Positions 17,708 to 57,455 of a DNA stretch of 64,000 bases are shown here, in pieces (position 1 is the stretch's first letter; every line of letters starts with the position of its first letter). Source of the stretch: Naegleria gruberi. Taxonomy: Eukaryota. Both the position numbers and the translations under genes were made by a program. The notes below the pieces were generated by a model that saw only the letters and a program-made list of their open reading frames with translations, was not told the origin of the DNA and searched no databases. The stretch is from NCBI GenBank assembly GCA_000004985.1, contig GG738861.1. One strand, 5' to 3'.

Positions 17708-19778
17708 ATGAAGAAGGTTCGTTTATTTTCATAATCCACAACAATGATGTATTCTGGAAATTATAGTTTTTCAGCTCTCGTGCCTCCAAATCAGTAAATA
17801 TTGAAGATGTACCATTAAAGAATTGGACTAGCGATAACTTTAAACAATGGCTCACCGATGAAGGCTATGAAAAGAAGAATGTTGTTACACGTATGTTTTT
17901 ATCTATTTTACATTGTCTCTAAATCATAAATGGACACTTTGAATCATCATGTGGTGATGAATAACTTACCGATCATCAATTTGTGTGATGATGTTTGATG
18001 AATAATAACAACAACATAATGAAATACAAATGTCGTGATATTAACAATTAACAATTAACAACAACAACAACATTTGAAAAAACAATTTTATTATTATTAT
18101 TATATTATTTAATATATATTTACATACGCTTGGTTTATTATTATTATTATTATACAATTAAAACAGCACTGGCCAAACAACAATTTGATGGTGCTGCACT
18201 GATGCACATCAAAGTGGAAGATTTTACTGATAGTGGTATTCCTAAAGGAAGTGCACTCTCAATCTTTAACAAAATTGAAGAGTTAAAGATCAAACAAATT
18301 CAAACAGGACTTCTCCAAGATTCCGTTGTACAATTACCATCCATGGCTACCACATCAACAACTGGCCAACCACAAACAAATAGACCACTCCCAACAACTC
18401 CAACCACAAATGCTCCTTCTTCAAAACCACCATCCTATGATGATGATGAAGTTGGAGATTCTCCAGTCGATCCAAATAGCAAATATAATGAAATTCTTTC
18501 TAAACCAAATCAAAAGACAGATGAAGAAGAGGAAGATGATAAAGAACTTGCACGTGATTTGGAAGATCGTCCAACAACAGGTATCAATATGGGTACTACA
18601 TCAGGAGCAAGTAATTTTGGAAGTAAGAGTGCTTCAACTGGTATTCAATCATTTAATCAAGTACCTGAAGCACCATTGTGGAGTATTAACGAATTTTCTG
18701 CTAATCAAAAGACAAGTAAGTTTCAAAATTGAAATATTATTGGTTGACTAGTGACGTAGACTTTGAATTCTGTCTCACCAAGTTGGATAATCTGAAAGCA
18801 CAATATGATACTAACATTATTAGTACTATTTGTCAAAATTTGACCTTCCCAGAAAGATTCCGTTACAAGTATCTTAATCCACAACGTTTGCCAATCTATG
18901 CAAATCAAAGAGCAAAGGATCAACCATTTATGAAGGTTAAGATGGTTGTCACTGAAATGGGTGACGGTGCTGCTCACCGTTTCGTCAGAAGATTCGGCTC
19001 TTTATTCAAGCACTCAACAATTCAACAAATGGAATACGGAATGTTCCACACTGCTTTAATTATTGGACCTTGGTATTTGGAATGGGGTGATTCATCTATT
19101 GCCGTTGTTAGAAGTAAATCTAGTTCCAAGGCTGTTTTTGCAGTTGATGTTGCTAAGGTTATGGGATTGGAAAATGTTGCTAAATCTATTGATAAGATTG
19201 CTTCTATTTGTGCTCACTGGAATGCTCACAAGACTTATGATAACAAGGCCTGTAACTGTCAACACTTTGTCAGTGCTGTTCTTGAATATCTTGGCCTCAG
19301 AGCTGAATTTGAAAAGAATATTAAGGGTCCATTGCGTGTATACATGGATCGTCTGAAGAATGATGGTGTCTGTGATATGAGATATCATCTCGAACCAACT
19401 ATTCAAGATGCCATTATTAACAGCGATTGTAGTGAAGAATTGAAAAAGTTCGTGGCAGGTAAATCAGTTACTTTCAAGACTCACAAAATGTTGGACGAAT
19501 TTGTACATACTATTCAAAAGTGCAAACCACTCTACTTTGATGCCAATGGTAAATATGATTACATGTTACTCAAGTCATTCGATAGAGCTTTCTGGTTGCG
19601 TGCTCAATCATCGAAGGAGGCCGAAAATCCAGATGTTAAACCTTGGACTGCTGATAATGGTGATTGTTTGTGTCCTTTCAATGGAAGTGTTGATACAGAA
19701 ATTAATAACAGTATTGTTGGTAAGGATTACGAAGTCGAAGATGTAAGAATTCCACTCCCAGTCTTTAGAAAGAAATAA
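17708..19778 (+). CDS. SAM-domain + PPPDE/DeSI-like permuted papain-fold peptidase fusion protein. Four exons: 17708..17716, 17767..17890, 18167..18715, 18760..19778
   Basis: Exon 1 is ATGAAGAAG, then a GTTCGT donor. The SAM domain is split across exons 2 and 3 (WTSDNFKQWLTDEGYEKKNVVT|P|LAKQQFDGAALMHIKVEDFTDSGIPKGSALSIFNKIEELK). Intron 2 is 17891..18166 (GTATGT...AACAG). Intron 3 is 18716..18759 (GTAAGT...GTAG, 44 nt, phase 1). It joins in frame to the downstream ORF, which otherwise lacks an ATG. PPPDE signature: MFHTALIIGPWYLEWGDSSI ... YDNKACNCQHFVSAVLEYLGL (compare DeSI-1 GIWHTSIVV ... EHNCNTFSNEVAQFLTG). Confidence 0.7.
18044..18152. repeat. Microsatellite-rich intron segment: (AACAATT)2, (CAA)5, (TTA)5, (TTA)6
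   Basis: acaattaacaattaacaacaacaacaac at 18044-18072. (TTA)5 at 18088-18102. (TTA)6 at 18135-18152. All lie inside the 276-nt intron 17891..18166. The poly-Y start of track ORF 18130 is an artefact of TAT repeats. Confidence 0.85.
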
Positions 19779-22652: not shown

Positions 22653-25600
22653 ATGCCAGCAAGTTTTGCTCCATCGACTGCGAATCCTTTCGGGAGTGCT
22701 GCAAACTCATCGTATCTGTATGATGAATTTATCGAGACGGCCGATCTTACTCCACAAGAACAACATCATGAAAATTTTAAAACTTTTTTAAATGAGTTTC
22801 AATTGTTATCATCAAATATGCAAGATAGTTTTCATGATGATGTTGTTACACAATTGTTGGAGTCTCATGATCAATATCAAATTGGTTCGGCATCGGGTAT
22901 GCCTGCTGTGGGGAGTATTGGTATGTTTGTAATTTATTTGATGATGATTGTGGAAATTAACATTGTGGAAAATTAATAGGAAGTTCACAACCTTTGATTC
23001 GTTTCAGTTTTGCACCAAATGAAAATCTTAGATTTGATGAATTGTTACAAATTTCAACAGAAAATCAAATACTTCGTAAAGTTCTTTTAGTCTTTGCTCA
23101 CTTGTGTGAAGAAATGTCCTTCCTTTCTACATTTGCCAAACAACACTTCTTCCCTGCACTTTCACTTTTCGGAGTTACTGTTCAAGATCAAGATGAATTA
23201 GATGGTGAAAAACAATTACAATTTGGACGTGCCATTCCACTTCTTATGGATTTGTGGAATTTCTGTGCCAGATCTAACTATGTCGTCAAATCAACAATAC
23301 AACAACTGGCAAGCTTATTTTGTGATACTAATGTAAATGACAAAAACTTGGCCACTTACTTGGGAGGTCCTGGTGGTTCACAAAGTCAATATTCACATTT
23401 TGAAAGAGTATATGAAACATTGGGTGAATTATTAGGAGTTTTGATAACTTTGGATGAAATTATTCTTCAAAACAGTGCCTTCTCTCATCAGCTCACTCTT
23501 TACAAGAGAATGATCAGTAAGGGTATGTATCTAATTGTTGTTAATTAATTTGAGACTGATCATTATTTTCTCACATTATAGTTATGACTGAACCTGAGAG
23601 ATACGGTACCACAAAGCAAAATGTAGGAAAGGTTTATTATTTATTAGAAAAAGTTGAAGGAGATGTTCTTGATGATTCAATCTTCAAATCATGTATTAAC
23701 CAAGCTTTTGAAGATGTTGTAACATATACCCAATTAGTTCAATCTGAAAGTGGAGAAACACAAGAAAAATATGAATCACTTAATATTGCTATTCAAAAGA
23801 ATAAGATTCTTAAAATGGAATTTGAACATCATTTGAAATTACAATTCGAGGAAATTTTGAAAACTGTCCTTCCTCAACCAACAACAACATTTAATATTCA
23901 ATCTTCAGGAACTGCTTCTCTCTCAGGAAATAACGCTAATAACGCCACATTCTTGGAATCGATACTTGAAAAGAGATTTGATTTTGTTGGATTTTGTGGT
24001 CTTTACATTTTATACTTTAATTTGTGGATGGATAATCAAACCTTGAAAAAGCTCTTCAAGCAAGTCTGGGAATTCCACAAAAAATGTCCAATTATTCACT
24101 TGTATGGTAATACTGCTTGGTCTTCTGCTGAATTTTTCCTTGCCAAGGTACCAGATATGGTCAGACTTTCAGGTGTCAAGAATCCAAAGAAAGAAATTGA
24201 AGTCGACAGAAGTAAATATATGGACGGTTTAATTAAGAGCTTGTTCCCTAACATGGTCAATCAACTCAATTTGAAGATGAACATTTGGCAAAGTAGATTT
24301 GAGTCCAACTTTGATGTGTTGGCCTCTGCTGGTAGAGACGTACTTGCTGTTGAAGGCTCACTGTTATTGCAAGGTTTGGAACTTGCTCAACAAATCAATA
24401 CTCTTGTTAAGAATGGTATTTATTTGCACATTCTTGCTGCAAAGAGTTTGTCCATGTCACAAGTTTTACAATTATGTAGCATGGTAGAAATGGTAAAGAG
24501 TATTCAAAACAGTTTTTACAGAAAATCTCCTCAACTTGCCAAGCACATCAGTTACATTACTGAATTCTTAACTTTCAAGATTCAAAGATTCTTGGTTGTT
24601 CTCAGAAATAGACTTCAAACAAAGAAAAAGCAAAGTAATGCTGATGCTGATCAATTGAGTGCTGTACTCTTAGCTTTGCACTTGCTTGATTCTGGACACC
24701 CAAGTAAGAAGAGATTGGTCTTGCTTAGTCTCACATTATCTGTAGCTTTCTCACGTGCTTCTGGTTTGTTCAAGGAGTCTGAATATGAGGAAGTTAAGGT
24801 TTTGATGAAGAGATTGGAAGTTTTGGCTCATTTTGATGTCTTGTTGGGAGAATACTGCGACTGTTCTTACTTGTACTGGAATAGAAATGTAATCCCAGCC
24901 TTCTTTGATAAGGTTTATGAGAATCCATCTCGTGCTCCTCAACTTCACCTCATGATGTCTGCTCTGCAAGATCCTCTTTACAATGTACTCTTGTCAAGTA
25001 AGGATGGTATTACACCAGTTGCTGTTCACTTGGAAGATGGCGGCAAGGCACTTGTAGATGATTATGTTGATGAAATTATGAGCTATTTCAATGCTCATAT
25101 CGTTGATCCATTGTGTCAAGAAATTGAAACTGATCTCAGATTGCACATCCACAATACAAATGTGTTCAAGAAGAAGGCCATTGCCTCTCAAACAAAGGAC
25201 TTGTCTCCATTCTTCAAGACTTTGGGTCCAATCAGATTCCATAACAAGCTCATTGAAATTAAGAGACTTGTTGAAAAATACTTGGACAAGACATTCTACG
25301 ATTTTACTATTATTGCTCTCCACGATTGGAAGACATATGAAGAAATGCGTAATTTGGCCTTTGAAAAGTACGGACTCAACTTGATTAATGTTTATTTGCC
25401 AGGTCAAACTTTGGAACAAGGTCTTGATGTTCTTGAAATTACCAGAAATATTCATGTTTTTGTTTCAAAATTCTCCTACAATTTGAATCAGAACATGTTC
25501 ATTGAACAATGTGCCAAATCCGAAGCCAAGAGTCTCAATGTTTTGCACATTAAACATATTGCCAACTCGATCAGAACTCACGGTACTGGTATTATGAATA

Positions 25601-26941: not shown

Positions 26942-27862
26942 ATGTCATCAAACAATAATCAAACTGTTACAGGAATAGATTTGTATTCAAGATTTGCCTT
27001 GTCAGGAGCCATTTCATGTGGTGTAACCCATGGAGCTGTCACACCTGTTGACGTTGTCAAAACTCTCAAACAATTATATCCTCAACAGTACAATAAGGGA
27101 ATGATTTCAACTTTTAGACAAGTTGTCAATGAGAAAGGTGCTTCTGCTTTATTGACTGGAATTGGTCCAACTTTTATTGGATATTTCATGCAGGGAGCTT
27201 TCAAATTTGGTGGATATGAAGTGTTTAAGGAGAAATTTGTAAATTATTTGGGAATGGAACGTGCTAGAGAGAATAAGAATTCAATTTATGTTGCATCCTC
27301 TGCTATGGCTGAGTTTATTGCCGATATTTTCTTGTGTCCTCTGGAGGCAACTAGGATTCGTCTAGTTTCTCAACCTAGTTTTGCAAATGGATTAGTTGGA
27401 GGATTTGCAAGATTATATAGAGAGGAAGGTGTCTTGAAGGGTTTCTATTCTGGTTTCTTCCCAATTCTATTGAAACAAATTCCATACAATATTACCAAAT
27501 TTGCCACTTATGAAATTGCCTTGGCAAATATTTTGGCAATTATTGGAAAGCAAAAGAGTGAACTCTCCTCAACAAATGAAACCCTTGTTGATTTGGGAAG
27601 TGGTTTAACAGCTGGTATCTGTGCTGCAATTATTTCTCAACCTGCAGATACCTTACTGAGTATGATGAATAAGCAAAATGCAAGTGACCAATCCATTTCG
27701 TCTAGATTGGTGTTGCTCGTCAAGGAATTAGGTCCAAGTGGATTATTCCGTGGCTTGGGACCCAGAATTGTTATGGTTGGAGCTATAACAGCTGGTCAAT
27801 TTGCTATTTATGGAAGAATTAAGGCAGCTTTGGGTGCCAAACCAAATGTTGAAATTCATTAG
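26942..27862 (+). CDS. Mitochondrial phosphate carrier (SLC25A3/Mir1-type mitochondrial carrier family)
   Basis: [27 protein letters not shown] and [22 protein letters not shown] match the phosphate-carrier signatures (GLTHTAVVPLDLVKCR, PTFLGYSMQGLCKFGFYEVFK). About 306 aa with three carrier repeats. Confidence 0.85.
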
Positions 27863-34159: not shown

Positions 34160-35037
34160 ATGGTGAACTTTTCAAAGCAAAAAAACATGTCAGCAACTGA
34201 GATGCAACCAAAATCTTATCCCATCTTTGCATTCCTTCGTGACTTTTCCATCACAGGAGGAGTGTATTTTGCCTCGTGTACAATAACAAATCCCATTAGA
34301 GGGGCTGTATTCCACTTGGGAACACAAGACATTTTTTCTGATAAACCAAAATATACAGGAATAATCAATTATCTTGTAAATACTGTTAAGAATAATGGGA
34401 TTAGAGGCTTATGGGCTTTCAATGTTGGAATTTATTTGAGAGAAGTGTCAGGTGTCGCCTTTAACTTTGCTTTTCATGCATCATTCAAGAAAATTCTTCC
34501 ACAATTTTCTCCAGTCAATAATCAATTGGAATACATGTTGATGCAATTCATATCTGGTGGACTAGCAGTTCTTACCACAAGAAGTTTCCAACATCCTCTC
34601 GATTTTTTATCTACTTATGAATATCGTGATCTAAAACCAGGATTTAGAGCTTGCTTTAATGGACTTGGTGATGTAGTATGATTTATGGTGGTTTATATTT
34701 TGGATTATTTGATATTTGGAAAGAAATGAGAAGGAATCAACATTCCTTTGTGGAAAAACTTGGTGTGGCTCATGGAATTTCCCTTATTTCTACAATAGCA
34801 ATTTATCCAGTTGGAATGGCTAAAAGAGAAGCATTTGAAAAAGCACACAACCTTGTATCTCAAAGGAAATTCTATAATGGTACCTTAAAAGAATTATTTA
34901 ACATTGGAAAAGAACAAGGAGTGAAAGGTTTGTTTAGAGGGCTCTCTGGTGGATACCCTATTCTTTCAAGTATTAAACCAGCTTGTACTTTGGTGCTATT
35001 TGATGAAATACGTGGATGGTTATTGAAACAAGAATAG
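34160..35037 (+). pseudogene. Divergent ADP/ATP-carrier-like mitochondrial carrier gene, interrupted by a -1 frame break at about 34672-34681 (pseudogene or sequence indel)
   Basis: ORF 34160..34681 is AAC-like: FLRDFSITGG, YTGIINYLVNTVKNNGIRGLWAFNVGIYLREVSGVAFNFAFHASFKK. It ends at ...FNGLGDVV*. The homology continues in the -1 frame from ATG at 34678: IYGGLYFGLFD ... YNGTLKELFNIGKEQGVKGLFRGLSGGYPIL. The two frames overlap and no GT..AG intron can bridge them. Carrier signature motifs are degenerate (NPIRGA instead of Px[DE]xx[KR]). Confidence 0.6.
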
Positions 35038-35048
35038 AAAATGTATTT

Positions 35049-36172
35049 TTATGGAGATAGTTCATTAATTGTTGTGATGATTTGAATGTCAGTCAGTAAT
35101 TTCCTCAGATAAATATTATACATAGTTGTTATCATTCTATTGGTGATTGGAAGTAAACATGGAGAAATAAAAGGAGTGGTGACATTATCAAAGATTAGTT
35201 CAGTAACTGATCTTACTTCTTCTTCTGAAGTTACATTAACAATATGATAAGAATCGAGATGAAATGAAACTCTTTCCAAATATTCTGTTATGATGGAATT
35301 AATAACTATTCTTTCATTGTAATCATTTGAAATTATTTCCAATTCTGGCCTCACAACTGAATTAATCTTCCTACTATATTCCATTCTTTTCTGCAATTTC
35401 TTTACCAGAATATCTGGCTTTGTAAAGAGAATTACTTTACGAGCATCAGAAAGAAGCCCATTTCCAAACAATTTTCCTATCATTTCCAAAGAATCATTCA
35501 TCACTTCTACATTATTATACTCCACTAAATTAAATTCTGAAAGGGAGACTGTGTAGATCAAAATTTTGATATTTTCAATACAGTAGATCCACTTTCTTCT
35601 TTCAGATCTTCTTCCAAATGCATCAAGAAATTCAACATTTGAATTATTCCAAATAGTTCTATAAGAAGTTATTCCACTGCTTCTCAATTTAATTAATGAG
35701 AAAGGATCAAATATTTTCTTTCTTTCAATTCTTGTGACAAACTCTTCCACATTTTCATATAACATTGCATTCTTAGCCCAGTTTGATTCATAATACTCTT
35801 TAAAGAATGGACAATTCCACAATTTTACCAATAGCCACATGCTGAATCATCTTGTATCCTTTGGATAAAACTTTCGTCAGTAGTTGATTCGAATATATTT
35901 CCCATATCTTCATCAAGATGTTCAACTATTTTTCTTAACTGCTGCTTTGCCTCCTCCTTATCCATCGAGTAATAAATTCGTTCAATAATCCAAAAACTAG
36001 CAAGTTGTAAATTATATTCGAATTTGTCATCATCAAAGTTTCTAATAGTGCATCTTTGAACGGATCGAAAAAAAGTTGATTTACCAGAATGAGATGATCC
36101 CAGTATTAGAACTTTTTGGAGGTTTTTGTCTTCTTTGTTAGCACGCTTGGATTTCGATTTGGATAAACCCAT
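35049..36172 (-). pseudogene. Heterotrimeric G-protein alpha-subunit-like gene with a -1 frame break near 35826-35846 and degenerate GTPase motifs
   Basis: N-terminal ORF (36172..35825): MGLSKSKSK... (N-myristoylation-type MGxxxS) and P-loop KVLILGSSHSGKST. C-terminal ORF (35840..35049): switch II / Q-loop region DAFGRRSERRKWIYCIE versus canonical DVGGQRSERKKWIHCFE (catalytic Gln replaced by Arg, first Gly by Phe). The NKxD motif appears as LFTKPDIL. No GT..AG intron reconciles the two frames. Confidence 0.65.
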
Positions 36173-36269
36173 TTTTTTGAATTAAAACTATTTAAATATT
36201 AAATTGTTAAATACATAATATTAAATATTTCCATTAATTAATAGAAAATGCTATCATCACATTCAAATA

Positions 36270-36584
36270 TTGATGATGAGGAAATTTCTACTGGTACTGG
36301 AGAGAATGATACATGATTGTGAGCAAATGCTTTCTTTTTTACAAAAGATTTCTCTCGCTCTTAATGAGATCCACAAAGATGATTACGTTCATGGAGATAT
36401 TAAGCCAGAACACATCTGGATCTCTCCAGAGGGCACTAGAGTTGGCTCAAACTCAGCTGATATCTACTCATTAGGACTTTCCATCCTCCAAATATTGTAT
36501 GGAAGCAGTGATCCCAATTACATTCGAAACAACAAAGAAAAGCTTTTGGAAAATTTAACTTGTAATGAGCTTAGGTATTCTTGA
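36270..36584 (+). pseudogene. Orphan protein-kinase C-lobe fragment (kinase gene remnant)
   Basis: 104-aa ORF with a catalytic-loop-like HGDIKPEHIW and subdomain IX-like SADIYSLGLSILQIL. It has no N-lobe (no GxGxxG, VAIK or alphaC) and no DFG. No upstream coding space remains, because the G-alpha-like gene abuts it on the other strand. Confidence 0.5.
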
Positions 36585-36729
36585 AAAGATGTTGAAAGAC
36601 AATCCCTTAGAAAGATTTCAAAACGCTTCTCAATTAGTTTACTAGTCTCAAATCACTAAAGATCAATAATTTCTCTTTTAATTGTTGTGAATTCTTTTAT
36701 GTTTATTAAGCAATTGAGGTGAACATGAA

Positions 36730-36802
36730 GCCGACATAGCTCAGTTGGGAGAGCGTAAGACTGAAGATCTTAAGGTCCCTGGTTCGATCCCTGGTGTCGG
36801 CA
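36730..36802 (+). tRNA. tRNA-Phe (anticodon GAA), 73 nt, no encoded CCA
   Basis: GCCGACATAGCTCAGTTGGGAGAGCGTAAGACTGAAGATCTTAAGGTCCCTGGTTCGATCCCTGGTGTCGGCA. Acceptor stem 7/7. D arm GCTC/GAGC. Anticodon stem TAAGA/TCTTA with loop CTGAAGA. T arm CCTGG-TTCGATC-CCTGG has a single U51-U63 mismatch. Near-identical to metazoan tRNA-Phe. Followed by a T-run. Confidence 0.95.
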
Positions 36803-56300: not shown

Positions 56301-57455
56301 CAATTGAGACACTTTGGTGAATCATTTGATCCAAAAGTCTGTTCAAAAATGTGCGATAATTGTTGTGATGAAACACCTGTTGAAAGAAAGGATTTCACAA
56401 AAGAAGCAGCATCCTTTGTTAAGCTTCTTAAGAGTATTGGTGCTTTTAGATGTACTCTGTCACATGTTGTATCAGTTTGGAGAGGTTCTAACACTCAAAA
56501 AATCAAAACTTTACAACATGATAAGCTTAGTGAGCATGGCTCTGGTAAATCAGTTTCTAAACAAGTTTCAGATTTCCTGGGTTCCAAACTTATTAGTGAG
56601 GGATATATTGAAGAAAAAGTACATGTTAATGATCAGTATGGTGGAAGTTATTCACAAATTGCTGCTTCAAAGAAGGCAGATCTTTTAATTACTGGTAAAG
56701 CTAAGTTTGAAATTCTGGCAAGAAGTAAGAATAAGAAGGCACCAAAGACCTCATTAGAAAAACATCTCAAGTCATCAAAATCAAACTCTTCGAAAGACTT
56801 TGAAAATGCTCTCAAGGAAGCTCTTACACAAAAGAGATCAGAATTGGCTACTGCTAGAGGACAAAGACCTTATGCAATTTTATCAACCAAAATTCTACAA
56901 GATCTCAGTGAAAAACAACCACTCGATATGGAATCTATTGCTTCCATTCCAGGTATGGGTAGACATGTTCTCTCTAACTTTGGTCTCATTTTCTTAGAGT
57001 TAATTCGTTCAATGAGACATAAGGCAATAGGAGATTGTGAACCAATGTCAGAAGCTGAAAAGAAAAAGTTTAGAGAAACCTATAGTAGTACTGGTAGTAG
57101 CAATACCTCAAAACTCAATTTTAAAACAAGTTTTACACGTCCTCAAACTGTCCATGATTCAGATGATGATATTGATGTGGAAAATATAGTTCTAGACGAT
57201 GATGAGCCAACAGCACCATCAAAAAAGGCTTCACTAGGTATTACAAAAGAGGAATGGGATGATATTGGTAATCTTGTGGAAGATTTGGATGACGACTTGT
57301 TGACTGAAAATATTTTCAATAGCACCTCTTCTTCTTCTACTACTCCTAGTGGTGGTTCAACCTCTAACTACCAGTCCACAACTACTAACAATAGTAACAA
57401 TGGCAACAGCTCTACTACGACAACTACTCCAAAGTTTAAATTCAAAAAACTTTAA
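53376..57455 (+). CDS. RecQ-family DNA helicase, BLM/Sgs1-like, with a long disordered N-terminus, RQC and HRDC domains
   Basis: Helicase motifs: [31 protein letters not shown] (I), [19 protein letters not shown] (II, DEAH), LTATAT (III), [32 protein letters not shown] (VI). RQC zinc-binding cysteines [10 protein letters not shown]...CSKMCDNC. The HRDC-like region [31 protein letters not shown] lies downstream of the RQC. Confidence 0.95.

Follow-up and report, generated by a model that had tools for sequence, protein, structure and literature searches.

The gene described here lies on contig GG738861.1 of the Naegleria gruberi assembly GCA_000004985.1, within a stretch of 64,000 nucleotides that was analysed as a whole and is called the window below. 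It is a G-alpha-like gene on the minus strand, divided by one missing base into a 5' and a 3' open reading frame (ORF); its features and those of the neighbouring loci are collected in Table 1. Frame 1 of the gene reads MGLSKSKSKRANKEDKNLQKVLILGSSHSGKST and onward to a TAA at 35827..35825, and frame 3 carries, in order, the segments LLVKLWNCPFFKEYYESNW, LDAFGRRSERRKW, LFTKPDIL, SYHIVNVTSEEE and FISPCLLP and ends on LTDIQIITTINELSP before the stop codon. The product of the 3' ORF is 100% identical to an N. gruberi "predicted protein" (XP_002678655, EFC45911, locus NAEGRDRAFT_66226; P0001 among our search results) from a 507-kb scaffold, and this public model of 263 amino acids, which begins at the first ATG past the break, is truncated. 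No near-identical second copy is found in the N. gruberi protein set, where the nearest protein is just 46% identical, so that the gene cannot be one half of a recent segmental duplication whose other copy is intact. A search for contigs encoding P0001 or its closest N. gruberi relative, P0002, found none, and two metagenome scans found no relatives of the locus.

Table 1. Features of the G-alpha-like gene and of neighbouring loci in the window
Feature	Position	Strand	Description
Whole G-alpha-like gene	35049..36172	minus	374 codons with the missing base put back
5' ORF	35825..36172	minus	115 codons; start, MGLSKS, polybasic run, P-loop, first part of helical domain
Start codon ATG	36172..36170	minus	MGLSKS, then polybasic run
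MGLSKS	36155..36172	minus	N-myristoylation-type start (Gly2, Ser6)
G1 P-loop GSSHSGKST	36074..36100	minus	GxxxxGK[ST] kept; Glu of GAGESGKST replaced by His
Frame-break interval	35828..35846	minus	19 nt, TTCAGCATGTGGCTATTGG; lacks one base, reading passes from frame 1 to frame 3
3' ORF	35049..35840	minus	263 codons, 100% identical to P0001; rest of helical domain, switch I/II, G4, G5 equivalent, C-terminal extension
Switch I KLRSSGI	35670..35690	minus	Gi1 R178 replaced by Lys; Mg-binding Thr181 by Ser
G3/switch II DAFGRR	35607..35624	minus	DxxG kept; first Gly of DVGG replaced by Phe; catalytic Gln by Arg
G4 TKPD for NKxD	35412..35423	minus	Asn lost, Lys and Asp kept; TKPD is the subfamily consensus
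YHIVNVTS	35226..35249	minus	strand beta-6 and G5 equivalent; TCAT replaced; subfamily consensus YHIVNT
C-terminal extension FISPCLLP...LTDIQIIT	35073..35171	minus	subfamily-specific; no counterpart in canonical G-alpha
Stop codon	35049..35051	minus	closes the G-alpha-like gene
Mitochondrial-carrier gene	34160..35037	plus	Pfam Mito_carr, weak scores; ORFs of 173 and 119 codons
Carrier-gene break	34672..34678	plus	one base missing in 7-nt interval TGTAGTA; otherwise open
Protein-kinase remnant	~36241..36650	plus	hinge and C-lobe only; no N-lobe, no DFG/APE segment
tRNA-Phe (GAA)	36730..36802	plus	just downstream of kinase remnant; only tRNA in the window
Second mitochondrial-carrier gene	26942..27862	plus	intact; 306 aa, three repeats, E=7e-51

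A preliminary description made from the letters alone had recognized a G-alpha-like protein on this stretch, and the database searches bear this out. The merged protein matches the Pfam G-alpha family PF00503 with 138.2 bits (E=4.6e-40; the curated cut-off is 48.8 bits) over profile positions 11-332 of 333, and a sequence search of the PDB also returns solved Gq, G11 and Gi chains. The AlphaFold2 model of the merged protein, with the subfamily alignment as input, reaches a pLDDT of 81.2 and a pTM of 0.80, and a Foldseek search of the PDB with this model gives top matches that are all G-alpha proteins (TM 0.6-0.76 over ~340 columns). In the model the fold is that of a two-domain G-alpha, a Ras-like domain with an inserted all-helical domain, as in the canonical proteins (human Gi1, Gq/G11). 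The sequence has moved far from these, with 17% identity to human Gi1 in our alignment A2 and 15-21% to the solved G-alpha chains aligned by Foldseek.

Much of the canonical apparatus is recognizable, including the GxxxxGKST P-loop, the DxxG motif, the RxERRKW segment of switch II with its reporter tryptophan and an N-terminal MGxxxS lipidation signal; the retained start and good P-loop had been noticed in the preliminary description, as had the replacement of the catalytic glutamine by arginine and the reading TKPD in place of NKxD, all of which are found as stated. Its further statement that switch II lacks the conserved glycine holds for the first glycine of DVGG (Gi1 G202), which is phenylalanine here, but not for the glycine of DxxG (Gi1 G203), which is kept. 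Two more departures from canonical G-alpha had escaped it. In switch I a lysine takes the place of the arginine finger (Gi1 R178), in the context IKLRSSGI, where the RxxTxGI pattern is absent, and the equivalent of TCAT is VNVTS, in the loop between beta-6 and alpha-5. Also unlike the canonical proteins, this one has a short N-terminal helix, and in place of the receptor-contacting tail stand the ~40 amino acids of a conserved C-terminal extension. This extension has no Pfam match, even at E<=10, and is modelled by AlphaFold2 with low confidence; a BTB-like reading of its "...LTDIQIIT" tail was rejected for want of a Pfam match at that threshold, and further exons past the tail were rejected for want of space, the stop codon of the convergent carrier gene being 11 nt off.

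Relatives of the protein were collected by sequence comparison and by a profile search of 1.84 billion representative proteins, which together yielded at least 12 other members of the same subfamily, those from the profile search among its 150 best matches; a word-indexed search with the subfamily profile returned only five family members, missed known ones and is of no use as a census. The closest relatives are NAEGRDRAFT_59438 of N. gruberi (P0002, 46% identity) and a metagenome protein (P0003, 43%), the latter an uninterrupted ORF of 372 codons seen on its own 3-kb contig. On that contig it is adjoined by a CoA-transferase (PF02515) gene (L001, 1389..2972, minus strand), so that synteny with the window is not conserved. 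Besides P0002, the N. gruberi members are NAEGRDRAFT_73162, _49275 and _50404 (P0013, P0027 and P0053); N. lovaniensis contributes P0024 and P0033, and metagenome and Logan sequences from the profile search P0014-16, P0028 and P0037. The members of these three groups match through the unusual C-terminal extension. Each of P0002, P0003, P0013-16, P0024, P0027, P0037 and P0053 reads as one protein without a break; the NAEGRDRAFT_66226 gene alone is interrupted.

An alignment of 13 sequences (A3) shows what the subfamily has in common: SLSEFN after switch II, [FL]TKPD, (V/I)NSIxxE, YHIVN where canonical G-alpha has the strand that precedes TCAT, FISPC(L/I) and, at the end, L(T/S)D(I/V)xI. NAEGRDRAFT_66226 carries every one of these motifs. 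At G4 the reading is [TVS]KPD in 11 of the 13 sequences and TKVD or SKVD in the other two, with the aspartate invariant and the lysine present in at least 90% of the subfamily, and the GK[ST] of the P-loop is kept in all members but two, which have lost the lysine (P0013, GTADSGTST; P0053, GSGAST). The position of the catalytic glutamine is covered by 12 sequences and reads R in NAEGRDRAFT_66226 and R, Q, S, K, S, D, K, D, S and T in ten others, with one unclear (P0016, DDNGM); since it varies across members in this way, it is unconstrained. The switch-I arginine position is lysine in NAEGRDRAFT_66226 and histidine in its two closest relatives. An MGxKxS, MGxxxS or similar start is present in seven sequences of A3, NAEGRDRAFT_66226 included, and in an eighth, P0166, which comes from an independent metagenome, is more than 90% identical to P0002 and begins MGTKPSRT. 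The public model of P0002 starts with MLIQNNNN, and P0166 starts 17 residues upstream of this with MGTKPSRTSKSD; the NCBI model of P0002 is thus probably truncated at the N-terminus, with its myristoylation signal missed.

The preliminary description had expected a GTPase-dead pseudo-enzyme and took the frameshift as an argument for recent pseudogenisation. A reading of the change of glutamine to arginine and of the TKPD motif as signs of decay in this copy cannot be upheld, as DVGGRR and VKPD stand together in the one uninterrupted ORF of NAEGRDRAFT_59438 and again in P0166. Of the contrary outcome that it had named, which joined a sequencing error at the break to a subfamily with these substitutions, the second half, that the substitutions are typical of a lineage-specific subfamily, is borne out by the G4 readings and the variable glutamine position, and on comparison of the sequences the missing catalytic glutamine, switch-I arginine, NKxD asparagine and TCAT are traits of a Naegleria or heterolobosean subfamily, not decay. 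Among the conserved positions of the catalytic loops, the one change peculiar to this copy is that of the G202-equivalent glycine to phenylalanine, found only in NAEGRDRAFT_66226 and opposed by glycine in 10 of the 11 other members; by itself this change could already compromise switch II.

The -1 frame break, likewise noticed in the preliminary description, is genuine in the given sequence and can be placed closely. The last stop in frame 3 lies at 35849..35847 and the first stop in frame 1 at 35827..35825, and because frame 3 has no stop below 35846 within the gene while frame 1 is closed by that TAA, the shift must fall inside the 19-nt interval between them. The missing base fits best directly 3' of the Cys codon TGT, where the repaired reading DDSAC-x-LLVKLW can be laid gap-free against RDDCCEILVTLW of the N. 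gruberi paralog and R-DCCEILVNLW of the other closest relative. Neither a homopolymer nor a slippery heptamer of the form X XXY YYZ is present in the interval. Off-frame stops occur at the gene about once per 7-11 codons, and because they are so dense the open stretches of 115 and 263 codons are much longer than chance would give and have to be regarded as maintained coding sequence, in the whole 374 codons of which no second lesion is found.

Apart from the break, the copy appears to be under the same constraint as its relatives. It keeps 40 of 43 conserved columns (93%), the threshold being 75% conservation or more in the rest of the subfamily, as compared with 95% in P0002 and P0003 and 66-80% in the remaining members. 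Tajima-type counts with ten outgroups gave 19-45 unique changes for NAEGRDRAFT_66226 against 16-39 for the comparison sequence, which is no consistent excess and hence no sign of rate acceleration. A single lesion, an unaccelerated rate and 93% of the columns kept are not the marks of relaxed constraint by which a pseudogene is known; with one lesion and undiminished constraint, the break, if it is real, must be very recent.

The surroundings of the gene bear on whether it is real. The carrier gene, which is convergent with the G-alpha gene, has a lesion of the same type. The kinase remnant, 70 nt from the G-alpha start codon, reads HGD for HRD and KPEH for KPxN, has a +1 frame break near 36565..36575, ahead of its LGILEKMLKDNPLERF end, and looks like a truncated pseudogene from its sequence. 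Elsewhere in the window the second carrier gene, intact throughout, contrasts with the broken and weakly scoring one beside the G-alpha gene. We also observed three junctions on the plus strand at which ORFs of the same strand meet in different frames (18729..18732, 23548..23584 and 57349..57455). The second has the look of a canonical intron of ~60 nt (GTAAGG...TATAG, near 23520..23580); the other two, one of them in low-complexity sequence rich in Ser, Thr and Asn, could be introns, separate genes or further breaks.

We consider the odds about even between a very recent, possibly allele-specific null mutation and a local error in the sequence. Both are sub-cases of the explanation of the locus that we prefer, and our estimates for them concern the origin of the break; each falls a shade short of an even chance. 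If the mutation is real, a one-base deletion has been fixed in N. gruberi NEG-M, or stands on the haplotype that was assembled, and has made a unitary pseudogene of a formerly functional member of the subfamily, from which only an N-terminal peptide of 115 amino acids, or nothing, would be made. The context of the break, with no homopolymer, is not prone to error, and this tells as much against a miscalled base as it does for a mutation. The same holds for the neighbours: both are damaged, and the structural degeneration of the kinase relic is real damage that cannot come from base calling. The other long ORFs of the window, of up to 1422 amino acids, are unbroken, which speaks for a generally good quality of the assembly, and the change of glycine to phenylalanine in switch II may mark an earlier loss of function specific to this copy. 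Against a mutation stand the youth that the pristine remainder of the gene would impose on the pseudogenisation, the odd coincidence of two independent one-base deletions within 1.2 kb in adjacent and otherwise pristine genes, and the fact that the deletion is known from one assembly.

If instead a base was miscalled, the gene is intact and encodes a functional subfamily member of 374 amino acids, and the 263-amino-acid model is an artefact of annotation. That just one base is missing, that the paralogs align without a gap across the break and that the conserved positions are fully kept all favour this, and the same pattern in the adjacent carrier gene would fit a short patch of low quality in a draft assembly; opposed to such a patch, the window holds zero Ns or ambiguous bases, and its remainder reads cleanly. 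The two lesions within 1.2 kb would also fit, speculatively, a haplotype undergoing degeneration in a clonal polyploid strain.

Two further explanations fare much worse. It is very improbable that the gene is a canonical G-alpha in decay that, once its function was lost, acquired DAFGRR, TKPD and the frame break alike by neutral drift: several catalytic positions do deviate together, but the same deviations are found in relatives without any interruption, which come from two or more Naegleria species and from several environmental contigs, the motifs specific to the subfamily are conserved in NAEGRDRAFT_66226 itself, and neutral drift at this base composition would bring many stops. Still more improbable is a biological bridging of the break, whether through a very small intron or through -1 ribosomal frameshifting of the programmed kind, since, although the genome does appear to have short GT..AG introns, the 19-nt interval aligns residue-for-residue with the paralogs and leaves room for none, the sole GT..AG candidate (31 nt, GTAAAA..AAAG) would cost the protein its conserved KLWNCPFF and introduce a stop, and a programmed frameshift is ruled out by the absent slippery heptamer.

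We therefore regard the locus, with a probability of about 0.7, as a full-length member of a divergent G-alpha-like subfamily specific to Naegleria or the Heterolobosea, a putative non-hydrolysing adaptor, split either by a recent null mutation or by an error. Its Gly2 and Ser6, together with the lysine-rich stretch that follows, suggest a myristoyl-plus-polybasic membrane anchor. Guanine nucleotide would still be bound, to judge by the conserved P-loop lysine and serine, the Mg-binding Ser/Thr, the DxxG motif and the lysine and aspartate of G4, and the preliminary description's expectation that canonical GTPase chemistry is gone agrees with the absence of both the catalytic glutamine and the NKxD asparagine. 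With the switch-I arginine missing as well, GTP hydrolysis by the canonical Gln/Arg pair is not predicted. Substitutions at the NKxD asparagine and at the alanine of G5 lower nucleotide affinity and speed up exchange in Ras and Gi, and the changes at the NKxD asparagine and the TCAT alanine (here V/T/N) would probably make binding weak or exchange fast. The invariant G4 aspartate and the near-invariant P-loop lysine make guanine-nucleotide binding without normal hydrolysis likely as far as motifs alone can tell, which would describe an adaptor that is constitutively loaded with GTP, or indifferent to its nucleotide state, and not a timed switch. Nucleotide binding may even be dispensable in the family, given the two members without the P-loop lysine. 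The short, unconserved N-terminal helix and the family-specific C-terminal module make classical coupling to G-beta-gamma and receptors doubtful. The product of the NAEGRDRAFT_66226 gene itself, given the break, may not be made at all.

A large and divergent complement of G-alpha proteins in Naegleria has been described previously. According to a 2021 review (PMC8584482, citing Anantharaman et al. 2011), N. gruberi has 44 G-alpha genes, and some G-alphas of Dictyostelium, Naegleria and plants have deviant catalytic motifs, which suggests that their nucleotide-dependent activity is reduced or lost. The lineage-specific diversification of N. gruberi G-alphas was reported by de Mendoza et al. 2014 (PMC3971589), and NAEGRDRAFT_66226 and its paralogs NAEGRDRAFT_59438, _73162, _49275 and _50404 belong to this 44-gene set. 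For N. fowleri, the part of Bosch et al. 2022 (PMC9283941) available to us reports 13 putative G-alpha subunits, six of them made recombinantly and tested biochemically, and characterizes G-alpha 1-7; the FTKPD/FISPC subfamily is not discussed in that part.

As a functional parallel to a G-alpha-like protein that does not cycle, the plant proteins XLG1-3 serve best in our view; they are likewise G-alpha homologues with deviations in conserved catalytic motifs and are reported to signal independently of nucleotide state (PMC8584482). The likeness would be one of independent origin, in plants and in Heterolobosea, and the substitutions themselves differ. The XLGs are extended at the N-terminus, by a long segment with NLS/NES, and lack a C-terminal extension like that of the Naegleria subfamily, whose proteins are known from sequence.

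At the level of the single gene, these results mean that the public NAEGRDRAFT_66226 model covers only part of a G-alpha-like gene of 374 codons, which has one frame break. At the level of the family, since catalytically deviant Naegleria G-alphas are already in the literature, the subfamily refines known biology. We tentatively hypothesize, at something less than even odds, that there exists a heterolobosean clade of myristoylated G-alpha-like proteins in which hydrolysis by the Gln/Arg pair was dropped while guanine recognition was kept, and in which the receptor-coupling C-terminus was exchanged for the FISPC...LTDIxI module. If this is true, non-cycling "pseudo-switch" G-alpha signalling would have an origin independent of the plant XLGs, the C-terminal module would possibly engage a new partner, and the broken NAEGRDRAFT_66226 copy would be a snapshot of turnover inside the clade. 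The subfamily offers a natural test case, parallel to the plant XLGs, for G-alpha action without the GTPase timer, and it bears on the exceptionally large G-protein network of Naegleria, the pathogen N. fowleri included.
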